Virus record (IMG/VR): IMGVR_UViG_2711768047_000011
Source of the DNA: a virus
Taxonomy: Duplodnaviria > Heunggongvirae > Uroviricota > Caudoviricetes
Reading direction: 5' to 3' (one strand)
Length of the DNA stretch: 37,931 nucleotides
Shown here in pieces: positions 3,952-28,655 of this stretch (within the stretch, counting starts at the first letter, position 1; each line of letters starts with the position of its first letter). A program made the translations under genes and the position numbers. The notes beneath the pieces are model-generated. The model worked only from the letters and a program-made list of their open reading frames with translations. It made no database searches and was not told where the DNA came from.

Positions 3952-4805
3952 GCACCATCCTGAAATGGGCGGGAAATAAAACTGCCATAATGTCAGAACT
4001 GAAAAAACATCTTCCTGCTGGCCCGCGACTGGTTGAACCTTTCGCGGGTTCCTGTGCTGTGATGATGGAGACGGATTATCCCAGCTATCTGGTTGCGGAT
4101 ATTAATCCTGATTTAATCAACCTCTATAAAAAGGTTGCCGCTGATTGTGAATCATTTATATCTCGCGCCAGAGTTTTATTTAAGGAAGCAAACAGGGAGG
4201 TGGCTTATTACAACATAAGGCAGGAGTTTAATTACTCAACTGAAATTACTGATTTCATGAAAGCGGTATATTTCCTGTATCTCAATCGTCACGGTTACCG
4301 TGGTTTATGTCGCTATAACAAGAGCGGGCATTTCAACATTCCCTACGGTAATTATAAAAATCCGTATTTCCCTGAAAAAGAAATTCGCGCATTTGCAGAA
4401 AAAGCCCAGCGGGCAACGTTTATCTGCGCCAGCTTTGATGAAACGCTGGCGATGTTGAAGGCGGGGGATGTGGTGTATTGCGATCCGCCGTATGACGGTA
4501 CGTTTTCCAGCTATCACACTGATGGTTTCACTGAAGATGACCAGTATCACCTGGCATCCGTTCTTGAACATCGGTCATCAGAAGGACATCCGGTCATTGT
4601 TTCTAACAGTGACACATCCCTGATCCGTTCGCTGTATCGCAATTTTACTCACCACTATATCAAGGTAAAACGCAGCATCGGTGTGGCAGCTGGCGAGGGT
4701 AAATCAGCAACAGAAATCATTGCTGTTTCCGGGCCGCGCTGCTGGGTGGGATTTGATTATTCGCGTGGCGTGGATAGTTCTGCCGTGTACGGAGTACGTG
4801 CATGA
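3948..4805 (+). CDS. dam: DNA adenine methyltransferase (Dam family, N6-A)
   Basis: N-terminal LKWAGNK SAM-binding motif and catalytic DPPY (CDPPYDG); GGAGGTGA RBS. Confidence 0.85.
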
Positions 4806-7216
4806 GCCATGCCGATATGAACAACTGCTGCGGCTTTAACGAGGCTGCCGCAGCGTTCTCATGGAACAGCCCGAAAAAGGCCATTAACCCTTATCTGGAC
4901 CCGGCGGAAGTTGCGCCGGTTTCTGCGCTTTCAAACCTGATCACTCTGTACGCTGCCGATAACGAGCAGGAACAGTTGCGCCGCGAGGCACTGAGTGATC
5001 AGGTCTGGGAGCGTTATTTTTTTAATGAATCACGTGATCCTGTCCAGCACGAAATGGAGCAGGATAAGCTCATTAGCCGGGCAAAGCTGGCGCATGAGCA
5101 GCAGCGTTTTAATCCGGATATGGTCATTCTGGCGGACGTCAACGCCCAGCCTTCCCATATCAGCAAGCCGCTGATGCAACGTATTGAATACTTCAGCAGC
5201 CTGGGCAGGCCAAAGGCTTATTCCCGCTATTTACGTGAGACGATTAAGCCATGTCTGGAACGACTGGAGCATGTACGCGACAGCCAGCTATCTGCATCTT
5301 TTCGTTTTATGGCAAGCCATGTAGGGCTGGACGGCCTGCTGATTCTGCCTGAAATGAGTCAGGATCAGGTGAAACGCCTGTCTACCCTTGTCGCTGCGCA
5401 TATGAGCATGTGCCTTGATGCAGCTTGTGGTGATTTGTATGCCACCGATGACGTTAAGCCAGAAGAAATCCGCAAGACATGGGAAAAGGTGGCAGCGGAA
5501 ACCCTGCGTCTGGATGTTATCCCGCCTGCGTTTGAGCAACTCCGTCGGAAAAGAAACCGCCGTAAACCCGTGCCCTATGAACTCATTCCGGGTTCGCTGG
5601 CGCGTATGTTGTGCGCCGACTGGTGGTACCGGAAATTATGGAAAATGCGTTGCGAATGGCGGGAAGAGCAGTTGCGTGCTGTCTGCCTGGTCAGCAAAAA
5701 AGCATCTCCCTATGTCAGCTATGAAGCCGTGATGCATAAACGTGAGCAGCGCCGCAAGTCACTGGAGTTTTTCCGTTCTCATGAACTGGTGAACGAAGAG
5801 GGCGACACGCTGGATATGGAAGACGTGGTAAACGCCAGCAGCAGCAACCCGGCGCACCGCCGCAATGAGATGATGGCCTGTGTTAAAGGTCTGGAGCTTA
5901 TCGCGGAAATGCGCGGTGACTGCGCCGTTTTCTACACCATTACCTGTCCGTCACGTTTCCATTCCACGCTCAATAACGGCAGACCAAACCCAACTTGGAC
6001 AAATGCGACGGTAAGACAAAGCAGCGATTATCTGGTCGGCATGTTTGCTGCATTTCGTAAGGCGATGCACAAAGCCGGATTACGCTGGTATGGCGTGCGG
6101 GTGGCTGAGCCGCATCATGACGGTACAGTTCACTGGCACCTGTTGTGTTTTATGCGCAAAAAAGACCGCCGCGCCATCACTGCATTGTTGCGTAAGTTTG
6201 CCATCCGTGAAGACCGCGAGGAACTGGGTAATAACACTGGTCCACGCTTTAAATCTGAGCTGATAAACCCGCGCAAAGGAACACCGACAAGCTACATCGC
6301 GAAATACATTAGTAAGAACATTGACGGGCGTGGTCTGGCTGGCGAGATCAGCAAGGAAACGGGTAAATCCCTGCGTGATAACGCTGAATACGTTAATGCC
6401 TGGGCGTCTCTGCATCGTGTTCAGCAATTCCGCTTCTTTGGCATTCCGGGGCGTCAGGCTTACCGTGAACTGCGATTGCTGGCTGGTCAGGCGGCAAGGC
6501 AACAGGGGGACAAAAAAGCAGGTGCGCCGGTACTGGATAACCCGCGCCTTGATGCCATCCTGGCTGCTGCTGATGCCGGTTGTTTTGCCTCCTACATCAT
6601 GAAGCAGGGCGGCGTACTGGTTCCCCGCAAATATCACCTCATCAGAACCGCTTATGAAATCAACGAAGAGCCGACCGCCTATGGCGATCACGGTATTCGT
6701 ATTTATGGCATCTGGTCACCCATTGCAGAGGGTAAGATCTGCACTCATGCAGTGAAGTGGAAAATGGTTCGTAAAGCCGTTGACGTTCAGGAGGCGGCAG
6801 CCGACCAGGGCGCTTGCGCCCCTTGGACTCGTGGCAATAACTGTCCCCTTGCTGAAAATTTGTACCAACAAGGGAAAGACAAATCAGCTGATGGGGATAC
6901 CAGAACGGATATCATCCGTATGGATGACAAGGAGTTGCACGATTATCTGCACAGTATGAACAAAAAAGAGCGCCGAGAACTGGCTGCAAGGTTACGCCTG
7001 GTGAAACCGAAACGGCGTAGAGACTACAAACAGCGAATTACAGACCATCAACGACAGCAGCTCGTCTATGAACTGAAGTCCAGAGGATTTGATGGCAGCG
7101 AGAAAGAGGTCGATTTACTCCTTCGCGGCGGCAGCATTCCGTCAGGAGCAGGCCTGCGAATCTTCTATCGGAACCAGCGTTTGCAGGAAGATGATAAGTG
7201 GCGGAACCTGTATTAA
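4802..7216 (+). CDS. rolling-circle replication initiation endonuclease (P2 gpA-like)
   Basis: 804 aa; HUH-type motif (TVHWHLLCF) and tandem-Tyr region ([12 protein letters not shown]); start overlaps dam stop. Confidence 0.85.
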
Positions 7217-7976: not shown

Positions 7977-9035
7977 TTAATTTTCAATTCCCTCCATTTT
8001 ACAATGAGTTTTTTCCCAGAACTGTAATACAACAGGACTAGCCCACTCTGGCATCAGTGCGTTATTTAAAAAACTGAAAACATCATGAGACGCATCAGCA
8101 TTTTTTCTAAGGAATTTCCAGCCTTTTCTAGTATTTATCTCAACAATACCTAACCCACCATCATCAAACATATGCATCTTGAATTCAGGATTGTTTACAC
8201 CTAGAGATTTTATTTCTTTTATGTATGGACTATCTTCATCCATAAATATTTTCTCTATGTGCTTAGCACAATGATATATTTTATTTCGATAAGTTGATAC
8301 GCTCACAGCGGTACGCGCTGTTGTTATTCCCATTCCTAATGGGGCATATGCTTTTCCATCCATCACTACGGGCAGATTTATTCCATTTTTTCTTAAGTTT
8401 GCAATATCTGAATCTGTAGTTGGATGAATACAAGCTAAGCCTGAAATACCTTTCATTTCAAATATTTCTGCTGCTTCTGGCCAGTTGCGTATGAATGTTT
8501 CTACCAAATCTCTTTGAGAAAAAAGATTTGGTTCTATGTTTTTATCATGATGTTTTATATCAATAAAAAGCACAGCGTTTGAGTACACCTTCAGGAATAA
8601 TACCCACTCAGCACGATCTGAGTATTTTTTACTTGAACTTACTGGATTTAATGGCAGATGGAGGTGATGAATCCCCCAATCAGCCCATAGGTTATCCGTT
8701 CTTTTCGTCGCCTTTTTACCGCTTGTGTCATTGAATAATGTTAATGTTTTACTCTGATAAGGATTTACATCACCACCAGTAGTAAACAACATCTCGATTC
8801 TCTGCAATCCAACCCTTGCGCCATCGTGAATATTTTCAGGAAATCGATCTGATTTTAAAATTATTCGTTTTTGTGGAGCAATGTAGCGTAAAAGAAAATC
8901 ACACCACCTCAGTAGAGGATCGTGAAGATTTGAGTGCCCGGATTCATCATATAATAACCCAAATGCTTGAATTCCCTTCTCTGAAATTTCGTCAATATCT
9001 TTGATTAGATCAATATTTTTTCGTGCGTCCAACAT
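7977..9035 (-). CDS. hypothetical protein (352 aa), hotspot cargo of unknown function
   Basis: AT-rich ORF on opposite strand to flanking phage genes; GGAG RBS before ATG; no family recognised by eye. Confidence 0.6.
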   Translation of the reverse strand: MLDARKNIDLIKDIDEISEKGIQAFGLLYDESGHSNLHDPLLRWCDFLLRYIAPQKRIILKSDRFPENIHDGARVGLQRIEMLFTTGGDVNPYQSKTLTLFNDTSGKKATKRTDNLWADWGIHHLHLPLNPVSSSKKYSDRAEWVLFLKVYSNAVLFIDIKHHDKNIEPNLFSQRDLVETFIRNWPEAAEIFEMKGISGLACIHPTTDSDIANLRKNGINLPVVMDGKAYAPLGMGITTARTAVSVSTYRNKIYHCAKHIEKIFMDEDSPYIKEIKSLGVNNPEFKMHMFDDGGLGIVEINTRKGWKFLRKNADASHDVFSFLNNALMPEWASPVVLQFWEKTHCKMEGIEN

Positions 9036-9301
9036 ACTAACTCCGTTTAAATATAATTTTTTAGTATTTCAGTTAATTAATATCTATACGCCGTTATAGC
9101 TGAATTTTCCGGTGATTTCAGGGCACATTAACCAATTTAGATAATACTATAGTAATGGTTGGGCTGATTTTTCAAGAACAAAAGTAATTTTCAAGCTTTG
9201 TAACATGTTGATTTTCCACTTTTCGCTCAAGCGGGCTTTCATCTTTGCAAGCCCATATGTTCGTTTTTCAAGCGATTATTCAGATACGTTAACTTCCCAT
9301 G

Positions 9302-9568: not shown

Positions 9569-11350
9569 ATGAATTTTGATGCAACACCACTAAATATAAA
9601 AAACATTCTATCTGTAAAACAAAGATATGTTATTCCTCGTAATCAACGTGAGTTTAGTTGGGAAAAGCTTCAGCTTGAAGAGTTATGGCAAGATATTGTC
9701 AGAAACATAAGGTTGAATGAAGATGGACAGAACTTGGAGTGTTCAGAATATTTTATAGGGACTATTGTTCTTTCTGGAGCAGATAGTGATGATGTATTAG
9801 AAGTGGTTGATGGACAACAACGATTTTCAGTTATTACTATATTGCTTTCATTAATATCGCGTAAATTGCGTTCCTTAGGGCAAGATTCATTAGCGGATGA
9901 TATATTTAAAACATATATCGTTACTGTGAGTCCTACATTTAGCAGAAGCCAATTAGCTTCAAATGGTGAGACATTTATTGAAAAATTAGCAAAAAATAGC
10001 GATAGAACATATTTTAAGTTAAAATATCAAGATCGCGAAGAGCATCAAGTTGATGAATCTTGTGAAGAGGATGTACGTATAAGTTATGCAGGAATTTTTC
10101 TTTCTAGAAAACTAGGGAGGAAATCACTCTGTTCTGCATTGTTGCGAGATGGTGCAAAACATTATAATAACCAAGATTATATATTTTGTTTGACTGCTGT
10201 ATATAGAATGATTACCAATTATTTGAAGTTGGTAAAAATATCTGTAGGTAAGGAGGATGATGCTTATGATATTTTTGAAGTGTTGAATGCTCGAGGGATA
10301 AACTTAAGTTCAATTGATTTGATAAAGAATAAAGTATTCCAAACTTGCACTCAAACATATCCGGTAGATATTGCAAAAACAAAATGGGATTATATCGTTA
10401 CTCAAATTGAGTCTAGGGATAGTAATAGCACTATTGCTGATTATATTAGAACGTGGTGGCTTTCTAAGTATAATTATATTGGAGAAGATCAACTTTATCG
10501 TGCTTTTAAACGTGAGATTCAAGATGAGAATACTTTATTGTCATCAGCATCATTTCTGAACGAATTATATGATGATGTTGAATTATACTGTAAAATAATA
10601 GCGCCAAATACAGATGACTGGCCTCAACCTGATCAGCGTGAAATTTACAACTCGTTAAAAGCATTCGAGATTTTTAATGTGAGTATTCCTCGACCATTTG
10701 TACTCTCATTACTTAGAAAACGTAAAGAGAAACCGAGAGCCCTTACACAATCAATGCTGATAGAATGTTTGAAGTCCTTAGAGTCATTTCACTTTAAGTT
10801 TAATGCAGTATGTCGTCTAAGACCATCTGGAATCGATGCAAAATATTCTGTATTAGCAGTAAGAATGAATAAGGCATTAAATAAAAGAGATGTTGAGGGT
10901 GTTATTAATGACGCGTTAGATTATTTTACACAGAAAGGGCCTTCAGAAAATATATTCAAACAAGCATTTTCAAAGAATATTGTTTATACAAATAAAAAAT
11001 CTGGGCAAAGGAAGTTGATTGTTTATATTTTTGACAAATTGGAACGTATCAGACGAGGGACGCGAGAGTTAAAAATGGATATAGTTTCTTTGGAGCACAT
11101 ATCATCTCAAAGCAAAACTAACGAGTCAGTCGTGGGTATGATTGGTAATTTACTACCACTCTGTTTTTCACTTAATGAAGATTGCAAAAATTATGAGTTG
11201 CACAAAAAAATAGAATCTTATAAAAAATCTGATTTAAAATTAGTTACAGAGTTTGTTAGTGAGTCAGAAGCAAGAGAACATAAATGGGATGATTCATTAA
11301 TAAAAGAAAGAACAGATAGCTTGGCGTTAGAAACGTTTGCTAAAATATAA
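9569..11350 (+). CDS. DUF262/DUF1524 fusion protein (GmrSD-family type IV restriction-like nuclease)
   Basis: N-terminal ParB-like DUF262 motifs (IPRNQREFSW, DGQQR at 9809..9823, FEVLNARGINLSSIDLIKN); C-terminal His-Me finger-like DUF1524 region (LEHISSQS...IGNLLPL...N). AT-rich, GAGGA RBS. Confidence 0.75.
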   Translation: MNFDATPLNIKNILSVKQRYVIPRNQREFSWEKLQLEELWQDIVRNIRLNEDGQNLECSEYFIGTIVLSGADSDDVLEVVDGQQRFSVITILLSLISRKLRSLGQDSLADDIFKTYIVTVSPTFSRSQLASNGETFIEKLAKNSDRTYFKLKYQDREEHQVDESCEEDVRISYAGIFLSRKLGRKSLCSALLRDGAKHYNNQDYIFCLTAVYRMITNYLKLVKISVGKEDDAYDIFEVLNARGINLSSIDLIKNKVFQTCTQTYPVDIAKTKWDYIVTQIESRDSNSTIADYIRTWWLSKYNYIGEDQLYRAFKREIQDENTLLSSASFLNELYDDVELYCKIIAPNTDDWPQPDQREIYNSLKAFEIFNVSIPRPFVLSLLRKRKEKPRALTQSMLIECLKSLESFHFKFNAVCRLRPSGIDAKYSVLAVRMNKALNKRDVEGVINDALDYFTQKGPSENIFKQAFSKNIVYTNKKSGQRKLIVYIFDKLERIRRGTRELKMDIVSLEHISSQSKTNESVVGMIGNLLPLCFSLNEDCKNYELHKKIESYKKSDLKLVTEFVSESEAREHKWDDSLIKERTDSLALETFAKI

Positions 11351-11386: not shown

Positions 11387-12421
11387 TTACATACACTCCA
11401 CAGAGTATTCACTGAATGAGATGATGTTTTTTTTAGCCCATTCATTAAGTTGCAGAATATGTTTTTGAATTGGTAGTAACTCATTCATAACAAATACTTT
11501 CGCGGCCTTTTCCACATCCCCAAACCCCCCAACATTATTAGGCATAATCCCCATCATTTGCGGTGGCACACGATGCGCCGCCATCATGTCATCCCGGCTC
11601 ACGTTCTTGATGTTTAGAAACTCATCCTTCGCCGCCACTTCTGACAACGGGATAATCTGAAGTCCGTCCTTTTTCCCGTTAGGCGAGTACATAAACAGGT
11701 TGCGGAAGTTACCTGGTCCTTTGGCGCTTTTCATCGCATTGCGGAGGTTGTTCACGTCCTCCTGGTTCTGCGCGGCATCGGTCATGTACATGATGAAGCC
11801 TGCATGGCTGCCGTTGATGTAATACTTACGGCGGAACAGCGTGGCGGACTCGTTGAGCAGGGCTGACGGAATGGCAGAAAGATAACCGGGCAGGCCGTAG
11901 ATCTCCTGGTTGATGTCCGGTTCCATCAGATGAAAAATGCTGCCTTTCGTGAACTGATACGGCTGCGTAGTCATGCCGTATTGCACAAACCAGTAGGTAT
12001 CCAGGTCTAATCCGCGTCGGGTGTATTTTGCCAGAGCAGGCTCAAGGGCGATAACTTCACCGAACCGGTTTGTGCGTTTCTCCAGGTAGGCGTTACCAAA
12101 TACCAGATAGTCCTGCACAAAACGCGAAAAAGCCTGCTGGCTGAGCAGCGGATGAGGGATATAGGTACTGGTCAGAATGTTGCACTTTACTGCAATCGGG
12201 GAACTGTGATGCACGGCAGCGCGGAAGGTGCGCGCCAGTCCGTCAAAGCTGACGGGCGGCTCATACCAACGGTCCATCTGTACGCATTCCACATAGTCCA
12301 GCAGTTCTCGGCGGTCCAGAACAGGAACGGGATCGCCGAAGCTGAATGCTTCGGCTGTAGTCTGGCTTTTAAGCTGGATCTGTTTCGTCGCCGCAGCGCG
12401 GTTTTTCTTACTCTTTCCCAT
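11387..12421 (-). CDS. portal protein (P2 gpQ-like)
   Basis: 344 aa from ATG 12419..12421 (same size as P2 gpQ); start overlaps terminase stop (ATGA). Confidence 0.9.
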   Translation of the reverse strand: MGKSKKNRAAATKQIQLKSQTTAEAFSFGDPVPVLDRRELLDYVECVQMDRWYEPPVSFDGLARTFRAAVHHSSPIAVKCNILTSTYIPHPLLSQQAFSRFVQDYLVFGNAYLEKRTNRFGEVIALEPALAKYTRRGLDLDTYWFVQYGMTTQPYQFTKGSIFHLMEPDINQEIYGLPGYLSAIPSALLNESATLFRRKYYINGSHAGFIMYMTDAAQNQEDVNNLRNAMKSAKGPGNFRNLFMYSPNGKKDGLQIIPLSEVAAKDEFLNIKNVSRDDMMAAHRVPPQMMGIMPNNVGGFGDVEKAAKVFVMNELLPIQKHILQLNEWAKKNIISFSEYSVECM

Positions 12422-14187
12422 CAAAAAATCTCCACAATATTGCTGGTATTGGCGGATTCGCCCTGCAGTGGTTCGTTAAACAGTGCGTGCATTGTTGCCC
12501 AGGCCAGATCGGCGTGGCTGGCTTCTTCGCTGCGGCTGGCTTCATAGGTTGGGCGGTTGCCACTGGCGGTGGTTGCGCGACGGATTGCCATGAATGACTG
12601 CGCAATGTCGGTGTGCCCGGCGTCAAACTCCAGACGGCGGTGGCTGATAATGTCGTAGGCCTTGAGTACCAGGGCGTTTTTAACGTTGGGGTTGTAGACA
12701 AACTCCCGGACGGCAGGAAAGAACGCTTTCACGTTCTCGTAAACCCCGTGACCAACGCCGGTTGAGTCGATACCGATATAAGTCACGTTGTACTGTTCGG
12801 TAAGTTTTTTGATGGCGTCAGCCTGGGCGCGGAAGTCCATCCCGCGCCACTGGTGACGCTCAAGAATGCGGAACTTACCACCCGGCACGGCTGGCGGTGC
12901 CACCACCACGCATCCAGCGCTGTCGCCGTTTTGCGTACCTTTTGCCGGGTCATAACCGATCCACACTTCGCGCCAGCCAAACGGGCGCAGCGCCAGTGCA
13001 TGAAAGTCGGTCCAGACTTCCCAACTGTCCACCATGCACGCCTGCAGCTCGCTGAGCGGGAACACGGACGCGAGATCGTCCACGAACTCGCACATCAGCA
13101 GGTTCTGGTATTCGTCCGGGCTGTACTCCATGCGTAGCTGGTCGAGGTCGAACAGGTTACAGCCGCCGCGCACCGCATCTTCCACGGTGACTATCTGGCG
13201 GTATTGCCCGTCTGCGCACAGCAGGCCGGGGGCCAGATTGCTGTGGGACAGGTCGATATCCACCTTGTCAGCTTTGTTGCGCCCACGGTTGAACAGCGCA
13301 CCGGACCAGAACGGATAAGCACTGTGGGTCAGGCTGGATGGTGTGGAAAAATAGGTCTGCCGCCATTTCTTGTGAATAGCCATACCGGAAGCCACTTTGC
13401 GCAGCTCCTGAAATTTCGGTATCCAGAAATATTCATCCAGATACAGGTTGCCGTGGTAACTCTGGGCCGTGCGGGCATTGGTGCCGAGGAAGTAAAGCGT
13501 GGCCCCGTTGGGAAGCACCATCGGATCGCCTTTCAGCTCCACCTCCACTTCTTTGGCGAAGTCGATGATGTACTGCTTAAAGACGTGAGCCTGTGCCTTA
13601 CTGGCAGAAAGGAAAATCTGGTTACGTCCGGTAAGCAGGGCGTCAATCAGGGCTTCACGGGCAAAGTAAAAGGTCGCGCCGATCTGGCGTGACTTCAGCA
13701 GGTTGCGGATGCGGTTGGTTTTTCCGGCTTCCCACCAGTGGCGCTGGTAGTTGAACATGGAGGAATGGAAGATTTCTTCCAGCTTCTCAATCTGTTCATC
13801 GGTGAAGACATTCTTTTCCGGCTGACGGCGCGGGCCTTTGTTGCGGTTGGCGACGTTAGGATTTAAGTCGGCTTCGTTGCCGCCATTGTTAAACTTGCCG
13901 ATCCGCGCGTGGCGCTCCGACTGGCGCGCCAGCAGGTCAATCTCTTTGAAATCTTTCCCTTCTTTGTGCTCCTTCATAATTAGCTGGCAGTAGCGTGCGG
14001 CGGTGGTGAGCTGCATCTGATCCAGCGGCCCATAGTCACCCCACTTGTCGCGTTTTTTCCAGCTGTGAACGGTTGCAACTTTCTCGCCCAGCATTTCAGC
14101 AATGCGGGCTACGCGGTATCCCTGAAAGTACAGCAGCATGGCCTGCCGACGGGGATCGAGATCTGCGGGTGTCAGTGTGGTGTTCAT
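12421..14187 (-). CDS. terminase large (ATPase) subunit (P2 gpP-like)
   Basis: 588 aa; position and size as P2 gpP; divergent from O. Confidence 0.9.
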   Translation of the reverse strand: MNTTLTPADLDPRRQAMLLYFQGYRVARIAEMLGEKVATVHSWKKRDKWGDYGPLDQMQLTTAARYCQLIMKEHKEGKDFKEIDLLARQSERHARIGKFNNGGNEADLNPNVANRNKGPRRQPEKNVFTDEQIEKLEEIFHSSMFNYQRHWWEAGKTNRIRNLLKSRQIGATFYFAREALIDALLTGRNQIFLSASKAQAHVFKQYIIDFAKEVEVELKGDPMVLPNGATLYFLGTNARTAQSYHGNLYLDEYFWIPKFQELRKVASGMAIHKKWRQTYFSTPSSLTHSAYPFWSGALFNRGRNKADKVDIDLSHSNLAPGLLCADGQYRQIVTVEDAVRGGCNLFDLDQLRMEYSPDEYQNLLMCEFVDDLASVFPLSELQACMVDSWEVWTDFHALALRPFGWREVWIGYDPAKGTQNGDSAGCVVVAPPAVPGGKFRILERHQWRGMDFRAQADAIKKLTEQYNVTYIGIDSTGVGHGVYENVKAFFPAVREFVYNPNVKNALVLKAYDIISHRRLEFDAGHTDIAQSFMAIRRATTASGNRPTYEASRSEEASHADLAWATMHALFNEPLQGESANTSNIVEIF

Positions 14188-20252: not shown

Positions 20253-21053
20253 ATGTCTGAAAAGTTAATTTTTTTATCCCATATAACAGAAGAAAAAGAA
20301 TTAGCGAAAATAATCAAAGATGCAATTGAAGACGAGTTTTCTGGATTCGTTGAAGTGTTTGTATCGTCAGATGGGAATACAATTAAAGCCGGTCAAAATT
20401 TCTTAAATGTTATTGAAAATGGGTTAGTAAATTGTATTGCTGCTATTTATCTGATAAGCCCAGAATCTGTCCAGAGAAGCTGGATTAGTTTTGAGTTAGG
20501 GGCTGTATGGGTTAGAAATGCTATCAGCCGGCAAAACGGCGGGCCAGAAATCCCTGCTATTCCTTTTTGCCACTCGGATATGACGTTTAGAGACTTGCCC
20601 CAACCTATCTGTAATCTAAATGGTATTGAAGCAAACCGATCTCATTCCTTGGAGTTTGCATTTAAGTCGATTCAGACCGCTGTTGGAGGAAAAGGACGAT
20701 TGAGAACTGATTTTGATGTTCTTGCCGAGAAAGTTAACATTTTTGAGAGAGATTATACAGTCTTCAAAAGTATAGGCGAAATTCTCGGTTTAATTGGTGT
20801 AGATAGCCAGCGTCGCGCACAATTAGTTCAGCTTGTTAATAGTTCAGCAGAGAATGAAGTTATAATTAAAACTGATACTAGGCAGGATTCAGCAGATATA
20901 ATATTTAAATTAGTTGATACTAAGTTAAGTCATTTCGCTAAATATAAAGTAACATCTTCTGGTTTAGGTATGGGACTTCAAGGCGCTTCCCCTTTCTGTG
21001 AATTTGAATTGAGAATGGATCGGAAAATACTCAGTGATTACTTGGCTCGATAG
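20253..21053 (+). CDS. TIR-like domain protein (266 aa), cargo between S and V
   Basis: N-terminal IFLSH...ELAKIIKDAIE...VEVFVSSDG.I.AGQNF...I...I..IYLISPESVQRSWISFELG follows the TIR beta-alpha pattern; very AT-rich; strong RBS TAGGAGGG. Confidence 0.6.
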   Translation: MSEKLIFLSHITEEKELAKIIKDAIEDEFSGFVEVFVSSDGNTIKAGQNFLNVIENGLVNCIAAIYLISPESVQRSWISFELGAVWVRNAISRQNGGPEIPAIPFCHSDMTFRDLPQPICNLNGIEANRSHSLEFAFKSIQTAVGGKGRLRTDFDVLAEKVNIFERDYTVFKSIGEILGLIGVDSQRRAQLVQLVNSSAENEVIIKTDTRQDSADIIFKLVDTKLSHFAKYKVTSSGLGMGLQGASPFCEFELRMDRKILSDYLAR

Positions 21054-22959: not shown

Positions 22960-23557
22960 TCTGCTGCCACCGGGTTCAACACCACTGGAGCGCCGACTGG
23001 CGCAAGCGTGCAGCGGGATTTCTGATTTGCAGGTGCCGCTGCGTGACCTGTGGGATCCGACGACCTGTCCGGTCAGTTTCCTGCCTTATCTCGCCTGGGC
23101 GTTCTCTGTGGATCGCTGGGATGAGGGCTGGACTGAAAGCGTCAAGCGCCAGGTGGTGAAGGATGCTTTTTATATTCATCAGCATAAAGGGACCACCAGT
23201 GCCGTGCGTCGGGTGGTGGAGCCGTTCGGCTTTCTGATCCGCATTATTGAGTGGTGGCAGACCGGAGAGACACCGGGCACGTTTCGTCTGGATATCGGCG
23301 TGCAGGACCAGGGCATCACTGAAGATACCTATCTGGAACTTGAGCGACTGATAAGCGATGCCAAACCATGTAGCCGTCACATGATCGGCATGTCCATCAA
23401 CCTGCAGACCAGCGGCCCGCATTGGGTGGGAGTCGCCAGCTATCTTGGCGAAGAAATCACGATCTATCCGTATATCAACGAAACGATTATTTCCGGTGGC
23501 ACCGCGCATGAAGGCGGGGCGGTCCATGTTATTGACACAATGAGAGTGAATCCATGA
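22952..23557 (+). CDS. baseplate/tail protein (P2 gpI-like)
   Basis: 201 aa; position after J. Confidence 0.8.
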   Translation: MNSLLPPGSTPLERRLAQACSGISDLQVPLRDLWDPTTCPVSFLPYLAWAFSVDRWDEGWTESVKRQVVKDAFYIHQHKGTTSAVRRVVEPFGFLIRIIEWWQTGETPGTFRLDIGVQDQGITEDTYLELERLISDAKPCSRHMIGMSINLQTSGPHWVGVASYLGEEITIYPYINETIISGGTAHEGGAVHVIDTMRVNP

Positions 23558-25059
23558 GCACAAAATTTTATACCCTGCTGACGGATATTGGCGCGGCGAA
23601 ACTTGCCAGCGCCGCCGCGCTCGGTGTGCCTTTAAAAATTACCCATATGGCGGTCGGCGATGGCGGCGGAACATTGCCAACGCCGGACGCAAAGCAGACA
23701 GCATTGGTAAATGAGAAACGCCGGGCTGCGCTGAATATGCTCTATATCGACCCGCAGAACAGCAGCCAGATTATTGCTGAACAGGTGATCCCTGAAAACG
23801 AGGGCGGTTGGTGGATACGTGAAGTGGGCTTGTTTGATGAGTCCGGGGCATTGATTGCCGTGGGTAACTGCCCGGAAAGCTATAAGCCGCAACTGGCTGA
23901 AGGCAGTGGGCGTACCCAGACCGTGCGCATGGTGCTGATTACCAGCAGTACGGACAATATCATCCTGAAAATCGACCCTGCTGTAGTGCTGGCAACACGC
24001 AAGTATGTGGATGACAAGGCACTGGAGCTGAAGGTGTACGTGGATGACCTGATAGCAAAACATCTTGCCGCACTGGACCCGCATTCACAGTATGCACCCA
24101 AAGAAAGTCCGACATTTACCGGAACCCCCAAAGCGCCAACGCCAGCGGCGGGGAATAATACCACTCAGCTTGCGACCACCGCATTTGTTCAGGCGGCACT
24201 GACGGCCCTGATTAATGGTGCGCCAGCCACGCTGGACACGCTGAAAGAAATAGCCGCAGCCATTAACAATGATCCGAAATTCAGTACCACCATTAACAAT
24301 GCACTGGCACAAAAAGCGCCGCTGTCGAGTCCGGCACTCACCGGAACGCCAACAGCACCTACTGCGGCGCAGTCGGTCAACAATACACAGATTGCCACTA
24401 CAGCTTTTGTGAAATCAGCGATTGCAGCAATGGTGGGTTCTGCACCTGCGGCACTGGATACACTGAACGAACTGGCGGCGGCACTGGGGAATGATCCGAA
24501 CTTTGCCACGACAATGCTTAATGCGCTGGCAGGTAAACAACCGCTGGACAATACGCTGACTCATTTGAGTGGAAAGGATGTAGCAGGTCTTCTCGCATAC
24601 CTTGGTTTGGGAGAAGGTGCTCCAGCTATTGGCGTTCCGTTCTTCTGGCCCTCCGCTGCAATGCCAAATTCTGTCATCGACAGCTGGTCCGGTATGGTGT
24701 TTTTGAAGTTCAACGGCGCGAAATTCTCTGCCACTGATTATCCTGTGCTGGCGAAAGTGTTTCCTTCGCTGGTATTACCTGAAGCCCGCGGTGATTTCAT
24801 TCGTATCTGGGATGACGGGCGAGGTGCAGACGGTGGTCGCGAATTATTAAGCTGGCAGGCAGCTACAAACTTTTCTCAGTTTGCCGGGAATATAGGCGAA
24901 GGTGCGGGACACGCAATTAACTTTCATGATGGCATCGCCGGAAATCAGCCAGGATTTTCACGATTTAATTTCACCAGTAACTCTGTGGGTGATGGTGTGA
25001 ATTTTGTTGCTGTCAGACCGCGAAATATTGCATTTAACTTTCTGGTGAGGGCTAAATAA
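23554..25059 (+). CDS. tail fibre protein (P2 gpH-like)
   Basis: 501 aa; internal tandem repeat (about 60 aa x2: ...TQLATTAFV...DTLKEIAAA...NDPKF... / ...TQIATTAFV...DTLNELAAA...NDPNF...). Confidence 0.85.
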   Translation: MSTKFYTLLTDIGAAKLASAAALGVPLKITHMAVGDGGGTLPTPDAKQTALVNEKRRAALNMLYIDPQNSSQIIAEQVIPENEGGWWIREVGLFDESGALIAVGNCPESYKPQLAEGSGRTQTVRMVLITSSTDNIILKIDPAVVLATRKYVDDKALELKVYVDDLIAKHLAALDPHSQYAPKESPTFTGTPKAPTPAAGNNTTQLATTAFVQAALTALINGAPATLDTLKEIAAAINNDPKFSTTINNALAQKAPLSSPALTGTPTAPTAAQSVNNTQIATTAFVKSAIAAMVGSAPAALDTLNELAAALGNDPNFATTMLNALAGKQPLDNTLTHLSGKDVAGLLAYLGLGEGAPAIGVPFFWPSAAMPNSVIDSWSGMVFLKFNGAKFSATDYPVLAKVFPSLVLPEARGDFIRIWDDGRGADGGRELLSWQAATNFSQFAGNIGEGAGHAINFHDGIAGNQPGFSRFNFTSNSVGDGVNFVAVRPRNIAFNFLVRAK

Positions 25060-25652
25060 TGAAACCTGTTTTTGATGAAAATGGGCTGGCTACAGTGCCG
25101 GGCGATATGCGTTGTTTTTATTATGATGCTGAAACATCTGAGTATACGGGCTGGTCTGATGAATATATTAATACTGGCGTAAGTATGCCCGCCTGTTCCA
25201 CTGGTATTGACCCTGGCGAAAACATTCCGGGAAAAGTGGCAGTATTTACGGGTAAGGGATGGAGCCATGAAGAAGACCATCGCAATGAGACCGTTTACTC
25301 AACTGAAAATGGCGCAGCTGTTACAGTGGATTATATCGGTGCCATCAAAGACGGTTATGTCACGCTTTCACCGTTAACGCCATACGATAAATGGGATGGT
25401 GAGAAATGGGTGACGGATACCGAGGCACAGCATAGCGCCGCAGTAGAAGCGGCAGAAGCACAGCGCCAGTCGCTGATTGATGCTGCAATGGCTTCCATCA
25501 GTCTGATTCAACTGAAATTACAGGCCGGACGGAAGTTGACGCAGGCAGAAACAACCCGACTTAACGCCGTGCTGGATTACATTGACGCGGTGGCGGCAAC
25601 AGATACCAGCACCGCGCCGGATGTCATCTGGCCTGAACTGCCGGAGGCGTAG
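25059..25652 (+). CDS. tail fibre assembly protein (P2 gpG-like)
   Basis: 197 aa; C-terminus ...LDYIDAV...DTSTAPDVIWPELP typical of fibre assembly chaperones. Confidence 0.8.
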   Translation: MKPVFDENGLATVPGDMRCFYYDAETSEYTGWSDEYINTGVSMPACSTGIDPGENIPGKVAVFTGKGWSHEEDHRNETVYSTENGAAVTVDYIGAIKDGYVTLSPLTPYDKWDGEKWVTDTEAQHSAAVEAAEAQRQSLIDAAMASISLIQLKLQAGRKLTQAETTRLNAVLDYIDAVAATDTSTAPDVIWPELPEA

Positions 25653-25902
25653 GCCATTCAATATCTGGTGCACTGGAAGTATCGACCAGTTCCAGTGCGT
25701 CCAGGTAATCCAGCCACAAATTATATTGTGCCAGTTCCTCACCTTTCAGACAACCAATAGCTGCTTTGCCAGGCCATTGCTTACTGTTTATAAACTCATT
25801 AGCCCAGTCTATTCGCAGCTGTTTCTCTGCTTCGGCAGCAATAACAATCTCATATAAATGAAACTGATAAGTTTTTATTAAAAGTAAGATGGATACCACC
25901 AT
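25624..25902 (-). pseudogene. inverted remnant of an alternative tail fibre assembly gene (G')
   Basis: Minus-strand ORF whose C-terminus (...LDYLDALELVDTSSAPDIEWPTPP) parallels the gpG C-terminus and converges on G with a 29-bp overlap; N-terminal about two-thirds missing. Confidence 0.55.
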
Positions 25903-25925
25903 TTAATATAAATGGTGGTTCACAG

Positions 25926-26798
25926 TTAACTAGCGTGTAATAAGTTGAACAGGTTTTTAGTTACTTCGTTTTTAGTACTAAAAAACATATCTTTAAGGTC
26001 AGGTAATGCAAAGAGAGCATTTGGGGTATTCGGTACAACAATAGGAGGTTCATATCCGTTGTCATACATTTTCTTTAAAGCGGCTACTATTTTTTTCTGA
26101 TTTCGATTGAATTCATTCATGTCAATAAAAATTTCTCCAGATAGTGTCCCGTCATCTTCACGTAGTATCGCTGGTTTGACACGACATATCTGATCCATTT
26201 CTCCAGTAGAAAAACCGGCAATCGCTGCATTAAATAACAAAGATGAAGTAGCCCATTTTTCATATAGTTTTTTGATAGCCATGCTTCTGATTTTTTTATC
26301 GTTGATATATCCAATGCCACTGGCCAAAACTTCGGTTAATGGATTTTCCCCGCGAGTTACTCCAGACCAATAGTTGTGCATCCAGGGCGCATTTTGCTCA
26401 AGTGGAGAGCCGAGATAATCAGTGATCCACTCTGAATCCACCTCTGTAAAGTTCAAACCATGAAAATCAATTTCTGCAATAGTATTTTTATAGTTTTGAT
26501 TTAAACTCCAACGGTCGATTGCTATTTCAGCCATTTCTTTTGTTTTGAATAGGTATATTCCGGTTAGGCGGGAAACCTTATCTCTGAAATTGTCTGAGCG
26601 AACCTTTTCAAGAGCTAACTCATTTTGTAATTTTTCATTGTGATTATCTGATAAGTATTTCCTTACTAGATTGTAGAACCAAATAGATACTCCAAACTCA
26701 CTTTTATAGCAAATTGATTCAATTCTTCCTATTGCAACCTCCCAGGCAACAATTGGATTATTTAAATTTAAGTAAGCATATAGTTTTCTCTGTTCCAT
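25926..26798 (-). CDS. hypothetical protein (290 aa), AT-rich cargo in the tail-fibre switch locus
   Basis: ATG at 26796..26798 with AAGGA RBS (MEQRKLYAYL...); very AT-rich; no family recognised. Confidence 0.55.
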   Translation of the reverse strand: MEQRKLYAYLNLNNPIVAWEVAIGRIESICYKSEFGVSIWFYNLVRKYLSDNHNEKLQNELALEKVRSDNFRDKVSRLTGIYLFKTKEMAEIAIDRWSLNQNYKNTIAEIDFHGLNFTEVDSEWITDYLGSPLEQNAPWMHNYWSGVTRGENPLTEVLASGIGYINDKKIRSMAIKKLYEKWATSSLLFNAAIAGFSTGEMDQICRVKPAILREDDGTLSGEIFIDMNEFNRNQKKIVAALKKMYDNGYEPPIVVPNTPNALFALPDLKDMFFSTKNEVTKNLFNLLHAS

Positions 26799-26935
26799 TT
26801 TTATTTTCCTTATAGATGCTATGAAGGTTATTATTACATAAATGTTCGATAAATATTTTAAAGTTTTAACTATGTTTCGGTGGCAATAAATATACATTAC
26901 AAGTGAAATTTATCAAGATAACAAAAGGATAGCTA

Positions 26936-27340
26936 ATGCTAATAGGCTATGTACTCGTGTCAACAAATGACCAGAACACCGAGCTGTAACTCTTTATGCT
27001 GACAGAAGAGTTGCGCCAGCATGGTGTGAATTTTAGAAGCCTGACTGACAGTATTGATACCAGTACCCCAATGGGCCGTTTCTTTTTTCATGTCACGGGT
27101 GCCCTGGCTGAAATGGAACGCGAACTGATAGTTGAACGTACCAGGGCGGGGCTTGCTGCAGCTCGCGCCAAAGGCAGAGTAGGTGGACGCCGTCCTAAGT
27201 TGACCACCGAACAGTGGGCACAGATTGGGCGTTTACTCGAGGCCGGAGAATCAAGACAGCGTATTGCACTGATTTTTGATGTGGGTGTTTCCACAATTTA
27301 TAGAAAATTTCCGCCAAATAAGAGCAATGAATCCCCCTGA
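26936..27340 (+). pseudogene. Gin/Hin/Pin-family serine DNA invertase, internally deleted
   Basis: N-terminus MLIGYVLVSTNDQNTEL then in-frame stop at 26987, resuming as LTEELRQHGVNFRSLTDSIDTSTPMGRFFFHV...GGRRPKLT (C-terminal HTH). About 58 codons of the catalytic domain absent and the conserved Arg in YVRVST is Leu. Confidence 0.7.
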
Positions 27341-27482: not shown

Positions 27483-28655
27483 ATGGCTCAGGATTACCAC
27501 CACGGGGTGCGTGTTGTTGAAGTCAACGAAGGCACCCGATCCATTACCACGGTGAGCACCGCCATCGTGGGTATGGTCTGCACGGGCGATGATGCCGATG
27601 CAAAAATGTTTCCTCTTAATAAACCTGTGCTGATCACTGATGTGCTGACTGCAAGCGGTAAAGCGGGTGAGTCCGGCACATTGGCCCGCTCGTTGGATGC
27701 CATCGCTGACCAGGCAAAACCCGTGACCGTTGTTGTGCGTGTGCCGCAGGGTGAAACGGAAGACGAAACCACGACCAATATCATCGGCGCAGTGACTGCT
27801 GAAGGTAAAAAAACAGGCATGAAAGCCCTGTTATCTGCCCAGTCACAGCTCGGCGTTAAACCGCGCATTCTCGGCGTGCCAGGCCACGACACCAAGGCGG
27901 TAGCTACTGAGTTGCTGAGCGTGGCGCAAAGCCTGCGTGGGTTTGCTTACCTGTCAGCGTATGGCTGCAAGACGGTACAGGAGGCGATCACTTACCGTGA
28001 AAACTTCAGCCAGCGCGAAGGAATGCTGATTTGGCCTGACTTTACTGGCTGGGACACGGTGCTGAATGCCGACGCAACGGCATATGCCACCGCCCGTGCG
28101 CTTGGTCTGCGTGCCAAAATTGATGAGCAGACAGGGTGGCACAAAAGCCTGTCCAACGTGGGCGTGAACGGTGTCACCGGAATTTCTGCTGATGTGTTCT
28201 GGGATCTGCAGGACCCGGCAACTGATGCGGGACTGCTTAACCAGAACGATGTTACCACACTTATCCGCAAAGACGGCTTTCGCTTCTGGGGTTCCCGCTG
28301 CCTGAGTGATGACCCACTCTTTGCCTTCGAAAACTACACCCGCACGGCGCAGGTGCTGACGGACACAATGGCAGAAGCGCACATGTGGGCGGTGGACAAA
28401 CCGCTGAACCCGTCGCTGGCGCGCGACATTATCGAGGGTATCCGCGCCAAAATGCGCAGCTTGGTAAGTCAGGGGTATCTCATTGGTGGTGATTGCTGGC
28501 TGGACGAGTCGGTGAACGACAAAGACACCCTGAAAGCCGGAAAACTCACCATCGACTACGACTACACGCCAGTGCCGCCACTTGAAAATCTGATGCTGCG
28601 CCAGCGCATCACCGATCAGTACCTGGTGAATTTCGCCAGCCAGGTCAGCGCGTAA
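27483..28655 (+). CDS. contractile tail sheath protein (P2 gpFI-like)
   Basis: 390 aa; RBS AGGAGG. Confidence 0.9.

Follow-up and report, generated by a model that had tools for sequence, protein, structure and literature searches.

Among the closest described counterparts of the gene considered here is fun(Z) of phage P2, which lies antisense between the tail fibre assembly gene G and the tail sheath gene FI, and whose 528-residue product blocks T5 (annotation of AF063097). The fun locus is a P2 hotspot enriched in defence genes: three experimentally selected defence systems were located there in P2-like prophages by Vassallo et al. (PMC9519451), and a 2024 preprint describes the locus as mixed-purpose, often holding an invertase plus defence-like cargo (bioRxiv 2024.10.15.618418). 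We have analyzed 37,931 nucleotides from a P2-like prophage (IMG/VR record IMGVR_UViG_2711768047_000011; the whole stretch is called the window below), in which the slot between G and FI is occupied by a gene on the minus strand at positions 25926-26798. This gene, called the cargo gene here, shares with fun(Z) both its slot and its antisense orientation, an equivalence that was already recognized in a preliminary description of the locus. Both genes are non-essential cargo, expressed in the lysogen in the case of fun(Z) and presumably so in the window, and the two proteins, of 528 and 290 residues, have no sequence similarity that tblastn can detect.

Three other kinds of system invite comparison. 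The first is the inversion switch of the Gin/Cin/Hin type, as found in the G segment of Mu, the C segment of P1 and the P2-like prophage of E. coli W. The window locus is derived from such a switch; unlike those examples, it no longer works as one and has acquired foreign DNA, the cargo gene, between the invertase and what was once the right crossover site. The second is BC2332 of Bacillus cereus (PDB 2AUA), which is a single domain of about 200 residues, whereas the cargo family adds a C-terminal domain of 125 residues. Unlike the cargo family, BC2332 also has an insertion of about 50 residues after strand 1, and it has the sequence YAYH where the family has YAY[LIV]. The DUF2441 family, of which BC2332 is a solved member, is listed in the Pfam clan of ADP-ribosyltransferases (ARTs; PMC7955679), and 2AUA gives matches to templates for the catalytic sites of diphtheria toxin, exotoxin A and cholix toxin (PMC3024214). 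The third comparison is with the defence systems DarTG and CmdTAC (PD-T4-9), in which a toxin of ART fold modifies DNA or mRNA during infection; CmdTAC is among the systems that came from an exploration of P2 diversity regions (bioRxiv 2024.10.15.618418). These are multi-gene toxin-antitoxin or toxin-antitoxin-chaperone systems with canonical ART motifs, whereas the cargo is a single gene with no partner, no PADLOC match and no canonical ART histidine. The hotspot, the type of switch and ART-based defence are all already known, and one more undescribed defence gene in a P2 hotspot would be no surprise to a specialist. The cargo gene family is nonetheless uncharacterized, with no entry in PADLOC-DB v2 or NCBIfam and no mention in the papers searched, and its stand-alone, histidine-less DUF2441-like domain with a private C-terminal domain differs from both DarTG and CmdTAC.

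The analysis shows that the cargo gene is functional and horizontally mobile, a "moron" of P2-like prophages that consists of a single gene. A role in defence or lysogenic conversion is plausible from its context, and we give defence against other phages about an even chance of being that role.

A functional, mobile single-gene moron

The cargo gene has a GC fraction of 0.27-0.42, compared to about 0.55 in the flanking tail genes. The longest minus-strand open reading frame in the six-frame list runs from 25926 to 26897 and encodes 323 residues; the 290-residue reading adopted here begins at the ATG at 26796-26798, a start that is kept in every relative, and PGAP calls the same 290-residue coding sequence, as a "hypothetical protein", in E. 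coli strains C4 and GN02461. The sequence AAGGA is found 8 nucleotides before this ATG, at 26807-26811 on the minus strand. The preliminary description of an AT-rich, 290-codon gene on the opposite strand with its own ribosome-binding site is thereby confirmed by the reading frame list, the base composition and the AAGGA sequence. The region between the divergent cargo and invertase genes (26799-26936, minus strand) is, together with the gene, 83% identical to a metagenomic P2-like contig (L015) whose cargo protein is 87% identical to that of the window. This intergenic region holds a promoter-like sequence, TTGATA-16-TATATT (26916->26889), and a promoter scan of the region found no enrichment over shuffles. 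A hairpin, ACCACCATTTA / TAAATGGTGGT, lies directly past the cargo stop at 25895-25919 on the minus strand and is also kept after the stop in L015; the scan turned up a terminator-like site near it, and the hairpin is likely the terminator of the cargo gene. No tandem repeats and no Rfam RNA were found near the gene. Since the reading frame, the base composition, the ribosome-binding site, the hairpin, the broken neighbours (see below) and the position of P2 fun(Z) all agree with it, the descriptive part of the preliminary account stands in full.

The ratio of nonsynonymous to synonymous substitution rates (dN/dS) for the cargo gene is 0.15 against a second E. coli lineage and 0.10 against the 87%-identical relative, so the gene is under purifying selection. 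The product is a soluble cytoplasmic protein of two domains, and its AlphaFold2 model, built from a 68-sequence alignment, has a pLDDT of 95.2 and a pTM of 0.90. Because the gene is under purifying selection and its product has a confident globular model, it is not a chance reading frame, and a pseudogene is excluded on the same grounds.

A protein search returned 104 homologues at E<=1e-3, with identities from 100% down to 28%, in Escherichia, Citrobacter, Yersinia, Pantoea, Vibrio, Moritella, Aeromonas, betaproteobacteria and others. A profile search of 1.84 billion cluster representatives matched 535 clusters at E<=1e-3 and 145 at E<=1e-30, and among the cluster matches listed, most have 260-310 residues and align over most of the profile. 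The cargo family is thus small, with a uniform two-domain architecture. The cargo gene itself is present in 7 of 5,426 complete E. coli genomes and on 5 IMG/VR contigs, and a motif-based scan of representative genomes from 100,044 species located 13 loci of the family; in addition, there are four distant copies on plasmids. A tblastn search of 50,697 sequenced phage records, including P2 (AF063097), gave no match to the cargo protein at E<=1e-3. Across about 20 independent contexts the gene occurs alone, with no conserved neighbour or partner gene.

The location of the gene could suggest something quite different, namely an alternative tail-fibre tip or receptor-binding module, or else a chance reading frame in decaying DNA, since it adjoins a remnant of the alternative assembly gene G' and stands at the position expected for Hv', the alternative tail-fibre C-terminus. 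This is extremely improbable. Pfam revealed no fibre, collar or tip domain in the window protein, no fibre-like fold appeared among its structural neighbours, and in L015 the true Hv' and G' are found beside the cargo gene. The lack of fibre domains and folds, together with the separate Hv' of L015, refutes a tail-fibre or receptor-binding identity. The preliminary description had taken the gene for cargo rather than fibre and had named such homology as the finding that would overturn it; the Pfam and structural-neighbour comparisons found none.

Fold and conserved residues of the cargo protein

Although the preliminary description recognized no domain in the protein, its N-terminal half (residues ~1-165) has the fold of DUF2441 (PF10386), as seen in the solved structure of BC2332 (2AUA), a family that Pfam places in the ART clan. 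The remainder (residues ~166-290) is an alpha/beta domain specific to the cargo family, for which no informative structural or sequence neighbour was found among the comparisons made.

Sequence comparisons also connect the family to DUF2441. Nine of 68 family members match the Pfam DUF2441 model at E<=0.01 (best 3.2e-5), and a full-length member on a Legionella plasmid, annotated as DUF2441, matches 2aua by sequence with an E value of 5e-5. A sequence profile search of the PDB gave 2aua as its sole match (E 0.04), and an hhalign comparison of the family with BC2332, at a probability of 72%, covered the SRL core alone. Elsewhere the N-terminal domain was covered by two PHROGs families only, neither with an annotated function, and was matched in the BFVD viral fold library by two short uncharacterized phage proteins only; a fragment search for BC2332-like proteins likewise returned just two short fragments.

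In alignment A2, which covers both the family and BC2332, no variation is seen at E60, E64, R67, R77, L78, D121, Y143, W144, P153, E156 or G161. Within the cargo family, a candidate tyrosine (Y82, in G-x-Y-F-F) and a candidate glutamate (E156, in P-L-T-E) are strictly conserved. The family sequence S-R-L-x-G-[VI]-Y-F-F is similar to the G-x-Y motif found in diphtheria-toxin-like ARTs and in PARPs, and P-L-T-E-V-L is similar to the strand that bears the catalytic glutamate of ARTs. Similarly, Y-A-Y-H of BC2332 resembles the Y-H-G-T strand, and on our assumption its last residue is the likely ART histidine. These triad assignments in the family come from resemblance between motifs and not from superposition of structures.

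Genomic contexts and possible function

The settings in which the cargo gene and its relatives are found are of the kind that accessory immunity genes typically occupy. The fun(Z) slot is occupied by the gene in E. coli and Citrobacter, while a Moritella relative lies in the other P2 hotspot (the tin/old slot, from A/ogr to the portal gene) beside a PLD/NgoFVII-type nuclease. A Yersinia relative is at the edge of a P2/HP1-like prophage, and relatives in Pantoea and at two further loci (L019 and L021) are beside decayed P2 remnants, with the L019 copy adjoining an AAA_15/AAA_21 ATPase. Outside of phages, the Vibrio cincinnatiensis relative is in a superintegron-like cassette array with ParE/Phd, a relative on a Legionella conjugative plasmid lies between RelE, HEPN and a type I-F CRISPR-Cas system, and one on a small Acinetobacter plasmid adjoins RelE/ParE.

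The presence of toxin-antitoxin cassettes beside the relatives in Vibrio, Legionella, Acinetobacter and Candidimonas, along with the solitary gene and its two-domain product, would fit a selfish addiction or toxin-like element, in which an ART-like domain restrained by its own C-terminal domain stabilizes the mobile element and plays no anti-phage role. We regard such an element as distinctly unlikely, because a single-polypeptide module has no obvious mechanism for differential stability, and because defence accounts better for the repeated presence of the family in two separate P2 defence hotspots.

As a tentative and more specific version of the defence role, the cargo family may be a single-gene anti-phage system and the first function for DUF2441/BC2332, with a histidine-less ART-like domain gated by the fused C-terminal domain in place of an antitoxin, and with a chemistry or a target possibly unlike that of DarT or CmdT. 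In the role that we consider the most likely, the gene would be expressed from the lysogen. The single polypeptide would then exclude other phages or abort their infection, with the ART-like N-terminal domain as the effector. A conserved pocket of this domain (Y82, E156, R77, D121 and E60/E64/R67) might modify a phage or host macromolecule using nicotinamide adenine dinucleotide (NAD+), or might consume NAD+, and before infection the enzyme would be held inactive by the C-terminal domain. If the protein does protect against phages, a compact single-gene system would be added to the catalogue of defences, and a function would be assigned to DUF2441, an orphan family with a solved structure. The occurrence of a toxin-like fold with neither an antitoxin nor the canonical histidine would also raise the question of how that fold is kept silent.

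A number of points weigh against this proposal. There is no characterized homologue of the cargo protein, and BC2332/DUF2441 is likewise without an assigned function; a search of the literature and of the Rousset 2022 supplements for the accession numbers and for DUF2441 found no study of the cargo gene. The window protein has no match in PADLOC-DB v2 at E<=1, three diverse relatives have none there at E<=0.01, and NCBIfam and the annotated PHROGs gave no match for the window protein. The association with defence weakens in distant taxa, because the neighbours there are housekeeping genes or unannotated; of the family members, only those from enterobacteria, Vibrio and Moritella have strong guilt-by-association evidence. 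Finally, P2 hotspots carry non-defence cargo too (PMC9122126). Alternatively, the cargo could be a moron of another kind, either a lysogenic-conversion or host-physiology factor or a counter-defence enzyme that helps the phage, for example by acting on NAD+-derived immune signals. This is unlikely in our view. Like fun(Z) and other morons that are expressed in lysogens, the gene runs antisense to the late tail operons and has a promoter region of its own; relatives are found outside phages, in a cassette array, on plasmids and in chromosomal islands; and none of the isolated phages among the records searched carries it.

The similarity to ARTs has weaknesses of its own that count in the same direction. 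Against Pfam DUF2441, the window protein scores 13.7 bits (E 0.063), below the gathering threshold of 25 bits. The canonical H-Y-E or R-S-E triad is absent from the cargo family, and the position of the histidine in the YAYH sequence of BC2332 is a leucine, isoleucine or valine in every family member. Since the triad is incomplete and the histidine is replaced in this way, NAD+-dependent modification or NAD+ consumption is a doubtful proposal for the chemistry of the cargo protein. The same replacement would be expected if the protein were a catalytically dead, ART-derived binder of nucleic acid or protein, a pseudo-enzyme that could still act in defence; inactivity is known from ART-fold proteins that lack this histidine, among them PARP13 and PARP9. 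We nevertheless consider a dead binder unlikely, in that the family has kept Y82, E156 and a high density of invariant charged residues, a pattern more typical of an active site.

One distant relative has an unusual position for a moron. This 32%-identical member (5989-6921 of locus L018) lies between the small and large terminase genes on an unrelated, non-P2 phage contig.

Entry of the cargo gene and decay of the inversion switch

The genes around the cargo preserve the remains of an inversion switch. The tail fibre gene H (23554-25059, plus strand), identified as a reading frame and by tblastn to relatives, is intact with 501 codons and fixed in one orientation. Gene G (25059-25652, plus strand; 197 codons, intact) forms the left border of the slot, as judged from its reading frame and the annotation of E. 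coli C4 (L001), and FI (27483-28655, plus strand) forms the right border, based on its reading frame, annotation and the P2 map. Hv' is absent, and G' is reduced to a 3' remnant at 25624-25856 on the minus strand, which corresponds to positions 65-130 of the 131-position Caudo_TAP profile and is annotated as a partial pseudogene in relatives. The invertase gene is also broken. Its N-terminal portion (26937-26990, plus strand) consists of about 17 codons followed by a stop (MLIGYVLVSTNDQNTEL*) and matches 4772-4835 of the E. coli W invertase region, and its C-terminal part (about 26994-27340, plus strand) matches positions 85-144 of Pfam Resolvase, plus HTH_7. This remnant is about 97% identical in DNA sequence to the intact E. 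coli W gene but lacks 165 bp relative to it, with the blastn alignment resuming at position 5001 of locus L013. A single orphan crossover site of the cix/gix type, the near-palindromic TTCTCGCATACCTTGGTTTGGGAGAA, is located inside H at 24590-24615, at the junction of constant and variable sequence. A pattern search of the window gave this site only, with 0.01 expected by chance, and thus no second site. The switch in the window is therefore non-functional, which bears out the preliminary description of a decayed switch that retains only a 3' fragment of G'.

Relatives with better preserved switches reveal how the cargo gene came to its place. The gene order in L015 is H, G, G', Hv', crossover site, cargo, invertase and sheath gene. 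The crossover site before the cargo is TTCTACAAAACCTTGGTTTAGGGGAA, and a second, inverted site is found inside H; the invertase is intact with 183 residues, and Hv' is of the Gp53-like_C type. In Citrobacter sedlakii (L003), where the cargo protein is 61% identical to that of the window, the gene adjoins an intact invertase of 185 residues and is directly followed, at the contig end, by a cix-like site and the beginning of Hv'. In E. coli W, which has no cargo, the crossover site is 63 bp from the invertase ATG. From these three layouts, the cargo module entered the short spacer between site and invertase, outside of the invertible segment. It arrived there together with a promoter region, a ribosome-binding site and a terminator hairpin of its own. 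The module is divergent from the invertase and is compatible with a working switch.

These relatives change part of the earlier interpretation. The preliminary description had supposed that the cargo replaced the alternative fibre and sits in the Hv'/G' position, and had proposed a comparison with relatives that have an intact invertible segment. That comparison showed that the cargo coexists with the invertase and Hv' in both L015 and L003, and in L015 also with G' and both crossover sites, so that replacement is not supported; furthermore, the cargo of L015 is not part of the invertible segment but is located between its right-hand site and the beginning of the invertase.

Because L015 and L003 carry the cargo beside an intact switch, the switch decayed after the cargo had entered. 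In the lineage of the window, Hv', the right crossover site, the 5' part of G' and the central portion of the invertase disappeared at this later stage, and the cargo was retained. Homology between the window and L015 begins at the N-terminal end of the invertase, covers the cargo together with its hairpin and ends at 25856, the expected position of the crossover site, beyond which the G' remnant lies. A second E. coli lineage (L002) has the same left junction, created by the G'/Hv' deletion, as the window; its invertase deletion is larger and different (L002 7052-7057 versus 26957-27062 in the window). The switch therefore kept decaying after the two lineages split. A further relative, L016 (78% identical), has only a G' fragment and a remnant of the invertase helix-turn-helix. 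Judging from the remnants in the window, L002 and L016, cargo-bearing fun slots of several lineages have lost their switch but kept an intact cargo gene. For comparison, sequence matches to switch-type invertases occur in 891 of 5,426 E. coli genomes, and the cargo is rare.

The fun(Z) hotspot can thus receive cargo between a tail-fibre inversion switch and its invertase, and the host-range machinery can decay later while the cargo is kept, an order of events relevant to the way in which prophages give up infectivity in return for benefits to their lysogens.

We also considered whether the invertase itself had made a clean deletion, from the right site to a quasi-site in G'. This was not supported, as no half-site is present at the junction; the homology to L015 ends a few bases short of the crossover site. 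A separate observation concerns the assemblies of C. sedlakii and of two sequencing runs (L003-L005), which break about 100-190 bp past the cargo, with the locus ending at ~8964-9061. The breaks fall inside the start of Hv', just beyond the crossover site, and such breaks would be expected if the invertible segment were present in both orientations in the sequenced population.

Serine recombinases also appear near two relatives outside of the fun slot. On the Legionella longbeachae plasmid pB1445CHC_73K (L022), a recombinase gene of the Hin/Gin family (5393-5950) is 15 bp upstream of a family member (5965-6852) on the same strand, and its product is 47% identical to the tail-fibre invertase of E. 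coli W. In Candidimonas (L012), a resolvase fragment is near the family member. Across 36 loci, tblastn found invertases at the P2 fun-slot loci and on one Legionella plasmid only, and because of this confinement a general link between the family and serine recombinases is unproven.

The window carries three other AT-rich cargo genes in other slots, and their identities form part of the contextual case for a defence role of the cargo gene. The tin/old hotspot, between gene A (4802-7216) and the portal gene (11387-12424), has a GC fraction of 0.32-0.37 and holds PD-T4-7 at 7977-9035 on the minus strand (PADLOC E 2.8e-144) and a GmrSD-type type IV restriction enzyme at 9569-11350 on the plus strand (Pfam GmrSD_N/C; PADLOC HEC-06, E 7e-75). 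An AT-rich gene at 20253-21053 (plus strand), between a virion-morphogenesis gene and the baseplate gene V, encodes a TIR-domain protein of 266 residues (Pfam TIR_2, E 1.5e-7; PADLOC PDC-S66, E 9e-7), with weaker matches to ThsB and SpbK. In E. coli C4 this slot is taken by the gene of an FRG-domain protein, and in L015 and L016 by those of unannotated proteins of 167-177 residues, which suggests that the slot is a further variable hotspot of these P2-like prophages.
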